Source of the DNA: Candidatus Calditenuaceae archaeon HR02
GTDB taxonomy: Archaea; Thermoproteota; Nitrososphaeria_A; Caldarchaeales; Calditenuaceae
Direction: 5' to 3'
NCBI GenBank assembly: GCA_002898395.1
Contig: BEHE01000007.1
Coordinates: 9,048-73,047, forward strand
Length of the DNA stretch: 64,000 nt
Shown here: positions 5,830 to 25,589 of the stretch, piece after piece
How the letters are laid out: each line of letters starts with the position of its first letter
Position numbering within the stretch: position 1 is the stretch's first letter
Translations under genes and position numbers: made by a program
Notes under the pieces: generated by a model
What the model saw: the letters and a program-made list of their open reading frames with translations, nothing else
Databases searched by the model: none
Told to the model about the DNA's origin: nothing

Positions 5830-7128
5830 TCAGCCGGGCTGTCCCCTGAGTTTCTCGGCCCTCTCCCTCATCAACCTCCTCAACTCGCTGATATCCCTAG
5901 GTATAACGAGTGCAAGCACCGTGAAGAAGACTCCACAAACAATCCATGTGGAAGAGGATATGTAGAGTATTCCAAACCCTAGGCCGTAAACGTCGGCCAG
6001 ATATCCGGCTATAAGTGGTGCTGTCGACGAGCCTGCGGACTCGAATATAGAGAGGAGAGAGTATGCCGAGCTCCTCGCCTCGGGCTGTGTTATGTCTGTG
6101 ACCGATGCGGCTACGTTTGGACCTGCCATCGGCAGAATGAATGAGGTTACCGTCCCCAAAATTATGAACCCATTGACATCTTCAACGGGCCATGTCAATG
6201 TGATGTAGATGGTTAGTGCGGACAGAAACACGACTACTGCACCCACTATCGCGCGCCCACTAGGTATCCTTGAGAAAAGAGCGTCGCCAATAGCACCTCC
6301 AGCGAAATTACCTAAGATCATTACAACCAACCATATGAACATGGCGAAGAGTGCCGTCACTTCATCAAACATTCTCTCCCTCAACATGTATGTGAAAACC
6401 CACGCTTGGAGTGTTGTCCAGGGAAAAACGCCGAAGAAGCCCTGTAGGCTGAGGAACATCATCGACGGCTTCTTCAGCGGGCCAAATATTTCTTTAAACC
6501 TTATTTTGTATAACTCCTCCTTTATTGTCAGGCCTGTTAGCTCAGGTTCTGAGCTTCCCCTCGGCACATCCTTTACAGCAAAGTATACGATTGCTGCAGT
6601 CAATATGCCTAGGCCCCCAGTTATCAGGAAGAGGAATCTCCAACCATACGCGTAGCCTATCAAGACTCCGAGGGTTGTCCCTACCAATGCTCCGGTTGCG
6701 CCCGTTGCTCCGATAAGCCCGAGAGGCTTACCCCTTTTCTTCGGGAGGAAGTAGTCGCTTATCAGACTCTCAATGCCGGATGGAGGTGTGTTGTCTATCC
6801 CTGTCAACGTCCTTGTTACAAAGAATTCTGCGAAGCTTCGTGGCAGTGTATTGAGCCATGTAGTGAATCCCCAGATGACGCCTGCGATGCTTATCAGGAG
6901 CCTCCTCGAATACCTGTCAAAGAGATACCCCCAGACAGGGTAGAGAGAAACGGATAGGACGGCGGTGGCCGTTATTAGCGCACCGCCATAAACATACGTG
7001 ATCTGGAACTCGTCCAAGATTTGAGGAAAGACAACCGAGATAACATAGATATCAGCGATGTGAAGAGATTGAAAGATGAACAGGATAATCGCCACAAACC
7101 AAGCATACTTTAAAGAATATTGGGGCAT
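5830..7128 (-). CDS. MFS transporter
   Basis: 432 aa with 12 hydrophobic segments, MFS-like loop motifs and a basic cytoplasmic tail. Confidence 0.65.
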   Translation of the reverse strand: MPQYSLKYAWFVAIILFIFQSLHIADIYVISVVFPQILDEFQITYVYGGALITATAVLSVSLYPVWGYLFDRYSRRLLISIAGVIWGFTTWLNTLPRSFAEFFVTRTLTGIDNTPPSGIESLISDYFLPKKRGKPLGLIGATGATGALVGTTLGVLIGYAYGWRFLFLITGGLGILTAAIVYFAVKDVPRGSSEPELTGLTIKEELYKIRFKEIFGPLKKPSMMFLSLQGFFGVFPWTTLQAWVFTYMLRERMFDEVTALFAMFIWLVVMILGNFAGGAIGDALFSRIPSGRAIVGAVVVFLSALTIYITLTWPVEDVNGFIILGTVTSFILPMAGPNVAASVTDITQPEARSSAYSLLSIFESAGSSTAPLIAGYLADVYGLGFGILYISSSTWIVCGVFFTVLALVIPRDISELRRLMRERAEKLRGQPG

Positions 7129-8646: not shown

Positions 8647-8953
8647 GGGGGCGTGCGGCCCGTAGCCCTCCTTCTGTTTTAGGCGGGATTGGTCTTCTCG
8701 GCTCTCCGCGGGCCTCGCCGGCGCTTCTCATCGGCCCGGCGCGCCTTTCCCCGTCAGGGTCGCCCGTTTCATCCATTCTCCACCACTCGTCGCCGCCTCT
8801 GGTTGGCGGGTCAACCTCATCTGCGGTGGAGGGGTCTCGTTTCTGTGGCGTTGCCGTGGGTCTCCCCGCCCACCTCGCGGTGGCTGACTGCACCGGTTGG
8901 GGGGAGGAACTTCCTCGGGAGCTACCCCGTGGCCCGCCCGGCCGCTCGCCCCC
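8647..8953. ncRNA. GC-rich (about 70%) block of about 307 nt closed by a terminal stem; candidate structured RNA, identity and strand unknown
   Basis: The 5' end GGGGGCGTGCGGCC can pair with the 3' end GGCCGCTCGCCCCC. There are internal long stems such as CTCCACC...GGTGGAG. The only ORFs are low-complexity Arg/Pro-rich ones overlapping on both strands. The block sits in a 520-bp gap between folP and xdhC. Confidence 0.3.
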
Positions 8954-20831: not shown

Positions 20832-21282
20832 TTACGTAGAACCACCAATCAATATGATATAAACGTGTCTAAACCACGCCAGCTTAAAAGCAGCATTATA
20901 GAAAGTGGTGGCGAGGTGTGTGGAGCGTTTTAGCGTAGGCCACGCCCGACCGTCTAAGCGGCTCGGGCGATTGGGAGTGGCGCGCTGAGGGCGTCCGGCC
21001 TAAGCCTCCGCCCGTACACGCCCACCCCATCAACCCCCTCTTCTAGGGGAGCCCTCGTCGGGGCCCAAGGCCCGTTGCCAGGCCCTATAGGCCCCGATTG
21101 GCCGCCTATTTTTGGGAGTGGCTTCGGGCTTAGATGCTTTCAGCCCTTATCCACAGGGGCGCGGCTGCCCGGCGCCGCCCTGTAGGACGACCGGTAAACC
21201 GTTGGCCCCGGCCCTCCGTTCCTCTCGTACTAGGAGGACCTTTCCCTCAGGCGGCCCGCACCCCCAGTAGGTAGAAACCGAT

Positions 21283-21325
<43 letters not shown>

Positions 21326-21959
21326 AGGCGAGCAGCCTCACCCTTGGCCCCTGCTGCGAGGCCAGGAGGGGAAGAGCCGACATCGAGGTACCAAGCCGCG
21401 GGGTCGATGGGGACTCTCGCCCGCGACGAGCCTGTTATCCCTGGGGTAACTTTTCTGTCACCACCGGCCCCCACTGGTAGGAGCCGATGGATCGCTAGGC
21501 CCGGGTTTCCCCTCAGGACCCCTTGCGTTCGAGGGTCCTGTCAGGCCGGCTTATGCCCTTGCACTCTACAGCGGGTTTCTGTCCCGCCTGAGCCGACCTT
21601 TGGGCTCCTCCGATATCTTTTCGGAGGAGTGCCGCCCCAGCCAAACTGCCCACCAGCCGTTGTCCCAGGGTCAGGCCCTGGTTAGCGGGGCAGTCCGGAG
21701 TAGCCGGTGTTACATTGGCGCCTCCCCAGGCCCCCGGAGAGACCTGGATCGACGGCTCCCGGCTACGCTATGTACTCCAGACCACTCCGCAGCAACTGGC
21801 TGCAGTAAAGCTCCACAGGGTCTTCTCTCCCCACTGGGGGTTCGTGGACTGTTCGCCCACGTTATGTGGGTTCACGGGGCTCCGGGCCGGGACAGTGGGG
21901 CCCTCGTTGATCCATTCATGCACGTCGGAACTCACCCGACAAGGCATTTGGCTACCTTA

Positions 21960-22700
21960 AGCATGCCCGACCGAATGGTCGGGGTTGGACCATATCATCA
22001 CCCATTAAGGGTGCGCGGCGTATGGTCTCTGAGGATCCCGCCCTCAACTAATATTTTCCGGAGTTTCTCCGCCTTTTCAGGGTGTCTGAAACCCACCTTC
22101 TCCGAGAACTTCTCCACATTGTCCCACCCCATCACGGTTAGCCTCCATTGATAGTGTCTTCCCCATGTGTGGGGTTTTTTACGGTTATAGGTAGATGATA
22201 TCTCGTTTAACTGCAGTATGTGGTGTGCCTCTACAAGCACTTTTTTCGCGACCATGTCGATGCTGACGTAGGGATAGCGAAACTTCTTCATGCCCTGAGT
22301 CTGAACATCTATCCCGCAGTATCCTTCACTGTCGAACAGCCCCTTCACGACGTCGATATCGTGTTTAAACAATTCCGGTATCTGCGCGCTGACGAGCTTC
22401 CGCCCCTTCGGGAACCCGATCCTCAACAAGAAGTCATGTACCTTCCTAACATTCGTGGAGACTATGTAGAGGCTTTTACTTGCGCGCCGTATGTTTGGCT
22501 TGACTCCGAAAAGCTCTTCAACCGTGGCGGCGATAAAGTTGGCGAACTCGAAGTTAGGGTCTCGGCAGAAGACCGTGTAATAGTTGCCGTAGACGCCTCC
22601 GTCTCCCAGCATCACTCCAATGAGGTAGGCTAGACTCATCTGCTGTCCGCTGACCTTCAGCCTTTATAGCTGTTTCACAGGGCGGTTTCCTGCGGGTCGG
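21960..22700 (-). mobile_element. rRNA intron 1 (archaeal BHB-type, domain IV, just 5' of the GGTAGC...AAGGTAGCC block) carrying a homing-endonuclease ORF
   Basis: rRNA sequence conservation breaks between about 22700 and 21960 and resumes with CTTAAGGTAGCC. The segment contains a full LAGLIDADG ORF. Boundaries are approximate. Confidence 0.6.
21998..22639 (-). CDS. LAGLIDADG homing endonuclease (double-motif, intron-encoded)
   Basis: Motif 1 LAYLIGVMLGDGG and motif 2 VVKGLFDSEGY. 213 aa, the size of I-DmoI/I-PorI-class enzymes. Confidence 0.85.
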   Translation of the reverse strand: MSLAYLIGVMLGDGGVYGNYYTVFCRDPNFEFANFIAATVEELFGVKPNIRRASKSLYIVSTNVRKVHDFLLRIGFPKGRKLVSAQIPELFKHDIDVVKGLFDSEGYCGIDVQTQGMKKFRYPYVSIDMVAKKVLVEAHHILQLNEISSTYNRKKPHTWGRHYQWRLTVMGWDNVEKFSEKVGFRHPEKAEKLRKILVEGGILRDHTPRTLNG

Positions 22701-23444
22701 ATTCACGGTGCTACGGGATTGTTACCCGCGCGGGGTACCCATAGCCTCCTCCTTCCCCGCATACAGCCGCGTTTAACGACCCCCTTGAACTTGAGGGTCA
22801 GAGTTACCCCCGGCGCTAACCGGCCCTTATCCCGGTTGGACCCGGGGTTCAGGTACCGGTGCTGGCCAGGATTGAGGAGCCGTTCAAAGCCTTTCGGCCT
22901 AGCGGCTCCCTATGTTTTTATTAAACAGTCAGGACCCCCTTGTCACTGCGACCTACCAACCCACCCTCACCGGGCAGGAAGGCAGGCACCCCTTCTCCCG
23001 AAGTTACGGGGCCAATTTGCCGAGTTCCCTAGCCCGGAGTAACCCCAGACGCCTTGGCCTTCTCAGCCAGGGGCACCTGTGTCGGATCTAGGTACGGTCT
23101 CTCGGGATCGTTCCGGGCTCCCTTTTCACTGGCCCCAGGGTCCAGCCGAAGCGGCCTTAAGGCCGCCCCATCCCTCCATTCACCTGGTTCTCGCCATTAC
23201 GGCTCTCCCCAGGCTTGGGAGGTTAGACAGGGCTACGGCCCTGCTCGGCCTTACCTGAGGCGTCGGGAGCCCGGCTTGCGTCGCCGCACCTACCCGAGAG
23301 GCACCGGAATCTTAACCGGTTTCCCCTTCGGCCTACCCGGTTAAGGTCGGCCTTAGGACCGGCTTACTCCCGGCTGACGACGCATTGCCGGGAAACCCGT
23401 GCCCTTCCGGCGGAGGGGATATGGGGAGAGGTCGCAGGACCGTG

Positions 23445-24005
23445 TTCTCCCAAAAAGCGAACAGGTCAAGAAGGAAGGTATTGTAAACTCTGATTGAAAG
23501 TGTCCCGAATTTTGAACGTGAACTCCGTAAGCCCCACCTAACTGAAGGCTTACGGAACTGTGATAATGGTATGTTTAACAAGTTAGACCAGTATTCCTCC
23601 AGTTCCTTCACCCTGTCCGTCCACTCGTCCTTGCGGAGCTTGATTTGTAGCCTAGGCCTTAGCTCGCTTCTCGCTACTCCGAGTGTTTCGAGGAAGTTTA
23701 CCATAGCGAGTAGCTTGTTAGGATCGCTGTTGACGAATTCGAACCTCGTCTTCACAGTTTTAGGTCTTTTAGTGCCTTCACCAGCATAAAGACCAAGAAC
23801 GTACCGAATAGCACCGCTGAGACGTAACGGCGAATCTTCATTGCGCCTACGCGGCCGTTCCCGTACTTGAACCGAAGAGTCACCTTATCGTCCTCTACGG
23901 TCTTCTTAAGTACTTTGGTGTGGTCTAACGTCTCCGGAATGAGCTCTGCTAGGTCTACGTAGCTCATCCTTTAAGTAGAGTTACGTGACAACAAGTAGTT
24001 AAAAG
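23445..24005 (-). mobile_element. rRNA intron 2 (domain III region), about 560 nt, with a decayed endonuclease ORF
   Basis: AT-richer insertion between exon sequences GAGAGGTGCAGGGCCGTC (5') and GGTCCTGCGACCTCTCCCC (3'), which are mutually complementary and form a helix around the junction. The flanking exon sequence aligns to conserved domain III blocks. Confidence 0.5.
23455..23967 (-). pseudogene. Degenerate, frame-split homing-endonuclease remnant inside intron 2
   Basis: Two adjacent minus-strand ORFs in different frames (23752-23967 and 23333-23755). The second has a segment, DPNKLLAMVNFLETLGVARSEL, that resembles the second LAGLIDADG helix region of I-DmoI (NKALLEIVSRWLNNLGV). No intact first motif is present. 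Confidence 0.35.
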
Positions 24006-25198
24006 TTTGACGGCCCTGCACCTCTCTTTCCCACCCCTCTTCGCTGTCTACTACCACCGGGATCTACATTAGCGGCCGGTCCACGGGACCTCACGGCCCC
24101 GCTTCTACCCAACCGCTACGCCCCCCTACCCCCACCCACGCAGCGCGTGAGTGAGCCCGGGTTTCGGCGGCCCGCTTAGACCCGTCAATTTTCGGGGCCC
24201 CCATCCTCGGCGGGTAAGCTGTTACGCACTTCTTAGCTGATGGCTGCTTCTAAGCCTACAGCCCCGCTGTCTCAGGATGGAGACGCCCTTTGGTTTGTCA
24301 CTTAGCGGGCACTTAGGGGCCTTAACCCGCGGTCTGGGTTGTTCCCCTCTCGGTCCCGGAGCTTACCCCCGGTACCCCACTCCTGGGATCTACGGTGCCC
24401 GCGGATTCGGAGTTCGAAAGGAGAGTGGAGCCTCATCGGCCCCTTGCTCCCCCATCGGTGCTCTACCCCGCGGGCAGCCTCCCCCAGGGCTGTCCTGCGA
24501 GACACTTCGGGGGGAACTAGCTATCACCGGGCTCGATTAGCTTTTAACCCCTAGCCCCAGGTCAGGGGACCGATTTGCACATCAAGACCCCTATTCGGGC
24601 CTCCACCAGGGTTTCCCCTGGCTTCGCCCTGCCCAGGGCTAGATCGCCCGGTTTCTAGCCTCACGGGCGTGACTACAGGCCCTTTCAGACCCCGCCCCTC
24701 GCCGGAGCACACTCCGGCTGCGGGCATGTCGGTTTCCCCACGCCTACGGGCTTTCAGCCCTTAGGCTCGCCACACCCGTGAACTCCCCGGCCCGTGATTC
24801 AAGACGGAGTGCACGACCCTGGGATTGTCCCCACTCGCCCCTCACCGGGGCTTCGCAGGGAATGCCCTTTCGGGCCGTGCTCGTCTGTTACCAGCCGGTT
24901 TCAGGCGCTTTTCACCCCCCTCTCGGGGTACTTTTCACCTTTGGCTCACGCTACTGGTCCACTATCGGTCTTGGGACGTATTTAGCCTTGGAGGCCAGTG
25001 GCCCCCAACTTCCCGCACCATATCCGAGGTGCGGTACTCGGGGACCGGAGCATCGCCCCTCCAGCCTTCGCCTACGGGGCTATCACCCTCTCTGGCCCCC
25101 CATTCCAGGGGAGTTCGGCTCAGCATTCAGGGCGGGCCTCCGGCCCCATAACCCCACACTCCCCCCGAGTTAACCTCGGGGGGTTCGGTTTGGGCTGC

Positions 25199-25232
<34 letters not shown>

Positions 25233-25589
25233 TTTGATTTCTTTTCCTCCCCCTACTTGGATGCTTCCGTTCGGGGGGTTCCCGATCCCGGACTGAAGGC
25301 CCGGGAACGAGGTGGCCGAAGCCACCCCAGGAGATCCCATTAGGAGATCCCCGGATCAACGCCCGCCTGCGGCTACCCGGGGCTTATCGCAGCTTGCCAC
25401 GTCCTTCTTCGGCGCCCAAGCCGAGGCATCCACCGGCTGGCGTACCCCCGCTTAGTGCCAAGGCGCGGCCTACTTCGCCACGCTCCACACACCTCTGCGG
25501 CGCGGTCATAGGAAAGTATTAGCCTCCTCCCGCATTCATGCCCCTCAGGACTTCATGGCTGAGGAGCAAACATCTCCGTGCGCAATAGA

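Follow-up and report, generated by a model that had tools for sequence, protein, structure and literature searches.

Structure and covariation point to a mobile group I intron with a LAGLIDADG endonuclease gene in the 23S rRNA gene of a Calditenuaceae archaeon

The reference for the mechanism of group I introns is the intron in the LSU rRNA gene of Tetrahymena thermophila (L1925), a eukaryotic nuclear intron of subtype IC1 without an ORF. The 23S position treated here presumably also hosts intron 5 of the chloroplast LSU rRNA gene of Chlamydomonas eugametos, a group I intron which encodes I-CeuI. This LAGLIDADG homing endonuclease is a homodimer of single-motif subunits, and its target spans the region of helix 69 and AAGGUAGC. 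To our knowledge, self-splicing has not been demonstrated for any archaeal group I intron, and no such demonstration was found in the literature searched. Group I introns of archaea were first reported by Nawrocki, Jones & Eddy 2018 (PMC6125680), who described 39 of them in archaeal rRNA genes, 21 with LAGLIDADG ORFs and some sharing their gene with bulge-helix-bulge introns. Their IB4 introns at LSU/1923 occur in Aigarchaeota, Thaumarchaeota, Micrarchaeota, Pacearchaeota and Aenigmarchaeota and include IB4.9 of Ca. Caldiarchaeum subterraneum (BA000048.1; Aigarchaeota, 1133 nt), IB4.11 and IB4.13; their table contains no Hadarchaeales host at LSU/1923, the Hadesarchaea-derived entries being IA3 introns at LSU/2500 (PMC6125680). 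The Rfam group I model RF00028 gave no significant match to the archaeal group I introns (PMC6125680).

The window analysed, a stretch of 64 kb (positions 1–64000), derives from a thermophilic archaeon of the Caldarchaeales (formerly Aigarchaeota), family Calditenuaceae. The exons flanking the intron studied here are ca. 98–99% identical to those of three loci, one of them from Ca. Calditenuaceae SKYB103, and the host is therefore a member of this family. An RNA scan of the window revealed a 23S rRNA gene and an RNase P RNA gene, and neither 16S nor 5S rRNA. The 23S rRNA gene appears to be unlinked from 16S in this lineage; in related loci, protein genes are found immediately upstream of 23S. 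The gene measures 4506 nt with two introns, designated A and B, and 3065 nt without them (exons of 1430, 626 and 1009 nt), its extra length relative to the 2987 positions of the rRNA model being accounted for by two low-GC blocks. The features of the locus are compiled in Table 1.

Table 1. Features of the 23S rRNA locus and of the ribozyme parts of intron A
Feature	Position	Strand	Remarks
Archaeal RNase P RNA	8651–8949	minus	
Archaeal 23S (LSU) rRNA gene	20952–25457	minus	RF02540, 2574 bits, model positions 1–2987
Intron B, canonical bulge-helix-bulge intron, 608 nt	23420–24027	minus	in a hairpin loop at ca. E. coli position 1287
Intron A, group I intron, 832 nt	21962–22793	minus	from covariance-model alignment and the U/G splice-site rule
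P1 5′ strand, last six exon bases GACCCU and first intron base C	22793–22799	minus	pairs with GGGGGUC
Internal guide sequence GGGGGUC, P1 3′ strand	22778–22784	minus	
P3 5′ strand CGCGGC	22766–22771	minus	pairs with 22014–22019; 3 of 6 pairs compensatory, 100% paired
P4, P5 and P5 extension	22692–22760	minus	correspond to the classical P and Q elements
P4, GCGGG with CCCGC	22756–22760 with 22692–22696	minus	invariant
P5, GGA with UCC	22750–22752 with 22699–22701	minus	enclosed by P4; both tested pairs covary
Conserved GGUAACAA in the P5 extension	22719–22726	minus	
P6 5′ strand CCGCCC	22680–22685	minus	pairs with GGGCGG (22038–22043); 4 of 6 pairs compensatory
LAGLIDADG homing-endonuclease ORF, 213 aa, in the P6 loop	21998–22639	minus (rRNA strand)	
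P6 3′ strand, J6/7 and R element	22021–22043	minus	aligns to the RF00028 consensus UCAaAGACUAAAC
P7 5′ strand GACCAUA	22021–22027	minus	preceded by G and a bulged A; 100% paired, one compensatory A-U to G-C change
P3 3′ strand GCCGCG	22014–22019	minus	forms a pseudoknot with P7
P8 hairpin CACCC-UUAAU-GGGUG	21999–22013	minus	3 of 5 pairs compensatory; aligned as P8 by RF00028
P7 3′ strand UAUGGUC	21988–21994	minus	within the S element GAUGAUAUGGUCC
P9 hairpin CCCGACC-AUUC-GGUCGGG	21966–21983	minus	6 of 7 pairs compensatory; followed by CAUG, whose final base is omega-G
Helices counted for covariation, P1 to P5			P1 GACCCU·C/GGGGGUC; P3 CGCGGC/GCCGCG; P4 GCGGG/CCCGC; P5 GGA/UCC
Helices counted for covariation, P6 to P9			P6 CCGCCC/GGGCGG; P7 GACCAUA/UAUGGUC; P8 CACCC/GGGUG; P9 CCCGACC/GGUCGGG

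The alignment to RF02540 agrees with an earlier note on this DNA in that 23S conservation is interrupted in domain IV directly 5′ (in rRNA sense) of UUAAGGUAGCC; intron A adjoins this block right after helix 69. In the covariance-model alignment 837 nt lie between GACCCUC and GUAGCC, flanked by ...GGGGGUAACUCUGACCCUC and GUAGCCAAAUGCC..., where the model has five positions (the 3′ part being re-aligned). With five of these nucleotides belonging to the exon, the insertion amounts to 832 nt (22793..21962) instead of the ca. 740 nt estimated in the note. The conservation of the rRNA leaves the junction ambiguous by 1 nt, as it may be read as GACCCUC/AAG...AUGC/UUAAGG or GACCCU/CAAG...CAUG/CUUAAGG. 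The ambiguity was settled by the group I rule that U precedes the 5′ splice site and G ends the intron. The 5′ splice site is thus placed at U22794/C22793, the last intron base, omega-G, at 21962 and the start of exon 2 at C21961, corresponding to an insertion between U1923 and C1924 of E. coli (K-12 rrlH numbering). Of the limits given before (21960–22700), the 3′ one stands within 2 nt of omega-G, whereas the 5′ one falls 93 nt short of the splice site; these 93 nt comprise GC-rich ribozyme sequence with the P1 guide sequence, P3, P4 and P5. Moreover, the designation as intron 1 has to be corrected, since in the order of transcription intron A is the second and 3′-most of the two introns in the gene.

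The non-ORF parts of intron A can be arranged into the helices P1 and P3–P9 with a P3/P7 pseudoknot. No P2 helix is present between P1 and P3, and P10, which involves the 3′ exon, shows weak pairing that differs among the 16 introns inspected by eye. In P7 a further G-C pair is possible beyond the bulged A (G-[A]-GACCAUA with UAUGGUC-C), the bases concerned being invariant in 16 of 16 introns. The guanosine site is usually located at such a G-C pair beside a bulged A in P7. In P4, the sequences UGCGGGGAAG and CCCGCAGG match what we take to be the consensus of the P and Q elements. Searches against Rfam produced no match at the gathering threshold within 21850..22800, and an E-value scan of the 5′ half of intron A alone was likewise without a match. 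In a 261-nt search, RF00028 (Rfam Intron_gpI) matched the 3′ half and scored 17.5 bits with an E-value of 0.022, below its gathering threshold of 50, which is a detection criterion and not a biological definition of a group I intron. RF00028 nevertheless recovers, at high posterior probabilities, the expected succession of R element, P3′, P8, S element and P9, aligning UCAGAGACCAUAC to UCAaAGACUAAAc and GAUGAUAUGGUC to gAAGAUAUAGUC for the R and S elements, respectively. The 5′ part of this match falls on ORF sequence, the true 5′ core being located ca. 600 nt upstream.

The proposed structure was examined by comparing 16 distinct introns at the identical site, whose loci were fetched via similarity of their ORFs from metagenome-assembled genomes (MAGs) of Caldarchaeales and Hadarchaeales (labelled as Nitrososphaerota, Caldarchaeales, Calditenuaceae, Calditenuis or as Hadesarchaea/Hadarchaeales). 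After removal of the ORFs the resulting “mini-introns” were aligned, and pairs were counted for a structure fixed in advance, which consists of P1 and P3–P9 with the P3/P7 pseudoknot and comprises 45 pairs (P5 represented by its first two pairs only). Pairing was found in 97.1% of 714 cells, compared to 40–47% when the 3′ partners were slid by 1–3 columns, and 20 of the 45 pairs show compensatory changes on both sides. Neither the observed pairing nor the count of both-sided changes nor the covariation score was reached by any of 500 shuffles; 21 of the 500 did attain the number of extra pair types. The non-ORF blocks of the intron are long and nearly invariant across the 16 homologues. The U·G pair at the splice site is invariant (16/16), as are the U ending the 5′ exon and the G ending the intron, and exon 2 begins with CUUAAGG. 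Exon base −6 covaries with the guide, forming a G/C pair in Caldarchaeales (9 introns; exon G-A-C-C-C-U, guide ...GUC) and an A/U pair in Hadarchaeales (7 introns; exon A-A-C-C-C-U, guide ...GUU), and each guide therefore matches the exon of its own host. As judged from these sequences, the ribozyme core is apparently functional.

The P6 loop carries the complete ORF of 213 amino acids with both LAGLIDADG motifs that had been reported before, recovered here at 22639..21998. The motifs are LAYLIGVMLGDGG at residues 3–15 and GLFDSEGY at residues 100–107, and Pfam LAGLIDADG_3 (PF14528) matches in two stretches with an E-value of 3e-11 and 43.9 bits (cut-off 22.5). A sequence search of the PDB with the protein yielded no LAGLIDADG endonuclease match to any solved chain. 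Its 22 homologues are 45–100% identical and all ca. 200–250 residues long; among them G100-L-F-D103-x-E105-G-Y is invariant and M-L-G-D13-G-G nearly so, and consequently the acidic residue that ends each motif is present, D13 being nearly invariant and E105 invariant. The AlphaFold (AF2) model based on the homologue alignment has a mean pLDDT of 90.2 and is composed of two α-β-β-α-β-β-α halves, each headed by a motif helix (residues 3–13 and 95–105); residues 202–213 form its only disordered part. Foldseek identified I-Tsp061I (2dch) as the best match in the PDB (TM 0.70/0.73, rmsd 2.9 Å over 198 columns), followed by the intein endonuclease domains of PI-PfuI, TliVMA and PI-SceI, I-OnuI-type enzymes and I-DmoI; the probability was 1.00 for I-Tsp061I, PI-PfuI and I-DmoI, and the bI3 maturase is also among the matches. 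The full-length double motif, the pLDDT of 90 and the presence of D13 and E105 bear out the earlier impression of an undecayed ORF, and the assignment as an intact double-motif LAGLIDADG endonuclease is well supported.

The final 46 nt of the ORF overlap P6′, J6/7, P7, P3′ and P8, and its stop codon, UGA, straddles the boundary between P8 and J8/7. The invariant R-element stretch GGAUCCUCAGAGACCAUACGCC is read by the homologues in three different frames (GGILRDHTPR, GGSSETIRR and GDPQR.Y), and its conservation is therefore imposed by the RNA. This RNA-imposed conservation in the overlap also accounts for the disordered tail of residues 202–213. In the uncultured archaeon MAG L001, whose host is 99% identical, the ORF at 6001–6642 (protein P0003) reads MLGNGG in place of MLGDGG, with Asn at the first catalytic acidic position, and the endonuclease may, as judged from this substitution, be catalytically impaired. 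In L007 of the Hadarchaeales (ORF 6001–6702, intron 5831–6692) the ORF continues through P7, P8 and P9 and past the 3′ splice site as far as the UAG of exon 2 (GGUAGC), where it terminates, such that the endonuclease would be without a stop codon if translated from the excised intron.

Comparison with close relatives revealed markedly different degrees of conservation of intron and exons. Exon identities are ca. 99% for Nitrososphaerota archaeon BF2_201808_bins_8 (L010) and for L001, and ca. 98% for Ca. Calditenuaceae SKYB103 (L012), whereas the respective intron A identities are 90%, 86% and 71%; the endonuclease of L012 shares 69% of its amino acids with that of intron A. By these identities, intron A is evolving, or being exchanged, far faster than the rRNA exons, and the comparison with L012 suggests that the intron was replaced or horizontally exchanged and not inherited in a strictly vertical manner. 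The homologues of intron A were all retrieved by way of its ORF. An empty-site probe of 55 nt, the spliced junction specific to the clade, had no match in metagenome contigs, and a 41-nt uninterrupted site is present in 89 metagenome contigs of more distant archaea with 23S sequences ca. 80% identical. The 20-nt core of the R element had no match in viral contigs. More distant LAGLIDADG loci (L024–L027, 23–26% identity, from Woesearchaeota, Nanoarchaeota and Methanosarcinales) were kept outside the analysed set. At ca. 6830–6930 of L004, a run of N is followed by a duplicated start of exon 2, CTTAAGGTAGCC..., which probably reflects faulty scaffolding at the intron/rRNA repeat.

Intron B is separated from intron A by 626 nt of exon in the same 23S gene and served as positive control for a bulge-helix-bulge test of both introns. 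The motif was defined as two 3-nt bulges with a 4-bp helix between them at the exon-intron junctions and cuts inside the bulges, and the complete helix-bulge-helix-bulge-helix arrangement was sketched by hand and its pairs were scored by script for both junction registers. In intron B, GAGGGG-UGGG-AAA-GAGAGGU pairs with ACCUCUC-CCCA-UAU-CCCCUC, and the predicted cuts restore the 7-nt loop expected by the rRNA model. The LAGLIDADG-like ORF of intron B appears to be frameshifted; the frame started by ATG stops after 71 codons, and a second frame (...LGLYAGEGT...) gives a weak LAGLIDADG_3 match (E-value 0.03). A listed ORF of 140 amino acids (23333–23755) extends from intron B into the exon. Intron B is missing in the closest relatives, L010, L001 and L013–L015, with exon identities of 98–99%, and a ca. 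70% identical copy is found in L003–L006 (loci of Caldarchaeales MAGs); such a presence/absence polymorphism among near relatives is typical of a mobile intron.

On the basis of the structural and comparative data, we consider intron A very probably to be a group I intron, presumably mobile, with its insertion point between the equivalents of U1923 and C1924 of E. coli 23S rRNA and with an endonuclease gene in its P6 loop. The reading implied by the earlier note was that of a classical archaeal intron, which is cut out at a bulge-helix-bulge motif by the tRNA/rRNA splicing endonuclease, the exons being joined by a ligase. In its favour, the introns in rRNA genes of thermophilic archaea are usually of this type and frequently have LAGLIDADG ORFs, one of them sits in the same gene (24027..23420), and the nearest solved fold, I-Tsp061I, is encoded by such an intron. 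However, with the junction fixed within 1 nt, intron A offers only 2 of 4 central pairs in both registers, flanked by 5/7 and 1/7 or by 1/7 and 4/7 pairs, compared to 4/4, 6/7 and 7/7 in intron B, and the motif was rejected for intron A. Minimum free energy folding of mini-constructs of the intron A junction gave the P1 and P9 hairpins and no junction helix, and the sequences conserved across the 16 homologues are those of a covarying group I core and not of a junction helix. We thus regard removal of intron A by the splicing endonuclease as very unlikely. Even more remote is a lineage-specific expansion segment kept in the mature 23S rRNA, the case named before as refuting an intron, to which we assign a practically negligible probability: nothing speaks for it beyond the bare presence of extra sequence inside an rRNA gene, and the insertion follows directly on helix 69 in a region of universal conservation, encodes a protein, contains the whole of a group I core, and is 71–90% identical among relatives whose exons are 98–99% identical. 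We exclude it because the sequence consists of a mobile-element ribozyme and an ORF placed directly behind helix 69.

A further explanation concerns not the type of intron A but its present state, as it may be descended from group I introns but have a ribozyme that has become unable to splice unaided and needs the encoded LAGLIDADG protein as maturase or a host factor, or it may be inefficiently removed. Some LAGLIDADG proteins are maturases, as illustrated by the bI3 maturase among the fold matches, P2 is missing and P10 is weak, and the overlap of the ORF with the core from P6′ to P8 couples the sequences of protein and RNA. On the other hand, compensatory changes preserve all core helices in both archaeal orders, and the sequence retains the U·G pair, omega-G and, in P7, the predicted bulged A beside the G-C pair, a pattern that a functional ribozyme would show. 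The tail of the protein, for which the overlap codes, is, moreover, disordered and variable in frame, and the constraint therefore acts on the RNA. We consider a dependent or inefficient ribozyme unlikely and take intron A to have the architecture of a self-splicing group I intron.

In analogy to the group I reference mechanism, the following scenario may be envisaged for this intron. In the precursor rRNA the exon end GACCCU would pair with the guide GGGGGUC to form P1, in which a U·G wobble marks the splice site, and the core would fold into the P3–P8 and P4–P6 parts with the P3/P7 pseudoknot. Free guanosine bound in P7 is expected to attack after U22794. The place of the guanosine would then be taken by terminal G21962, and attack of the released exon end just behind this base would join the exons and restore ...GACCCU-CUUAAGGUAGCC.... 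At the DNA level, by analogy with other rDNA homing systems, the endonuclease is expected to cleave 23S rDNA that lacks the intron in the region of the insertion site, the intron being copied in by repair; GGGGGTAACTCTGACCCTCTTAAGGTAGCCAAATGCC is a candidate substrate for the predicted cleavage.

Relative to the known systems, intron A shares with the Tetrahymena L1925 intron, which is inserted into this rRNA region at a distance of two bases, the U·G pair in P1, the P3/P7 pseudoknot, a predicted bulged A beside the G-C pair in P7 and the terminal G, and differs from it in the missing P2 and the P5 extension. In contrast to the single-motif homodimer I-CeuI, the protein of intron A is a predicted double-motif monomer of the LAGLIDADG_3 family, and its fold is nearest to archaeal intron and intein enzymes. 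The monomeric double-motif fold of ca. 200 amino acids is also that of I-Tsp061I and I-DmoI, to which the sequence identity is only 16–17%; the introns of these two enzymes are removed by the splicing endonuclease, whereas the enzyme of intron A is encoded in a group I P6 loop. With the archaeal IB4 introns at LSU/1923, intron A (832 nt) has the gene, the site U1923/C1924 and the kind of host in common. It fits their published description in every tested respect and belongs to this already-known archaeal group I family, of which the present copy is a new member; from site and host we further infer subtype IB4 and orthology with the LSU/1923 introns.

The 23S gene described here holds a textbook splicing-endonuclease intron together with an intron of another type. 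An ORF-bearing insertion in an archaeal rRNA gene is therefore not automatically of the splicing-endonuclease type, and only structure distinguishes the two kinds present in this gene. The family of 16 sequences provides strong covariation support for a group I core of thermophiles with host-matched guides, and it is common to two distant thermophilic orders, Caldarchaeales and Hadarchaeales. The combination of a group I ribozyme with an endonuclease fold closest to enzymes of bulge-helix-bulge introns and inteins raises the tentative and rather doubtful idea of traffic between the two archaeal intron types. If endonuclease genes indeed move between intron types, or introns are processed in both ways, the family would be a test case for the proposed origin of archaeal bulge-helix-bulge introns from group I introns, and would also represent a natural heat-stable group I ribozyme. 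As a compact GC-rich intron from a hot-spring lineage, intron A is a reasonable candidate for a self-splicing test and as a source of a thermostable rDNA-specific meganuclease.
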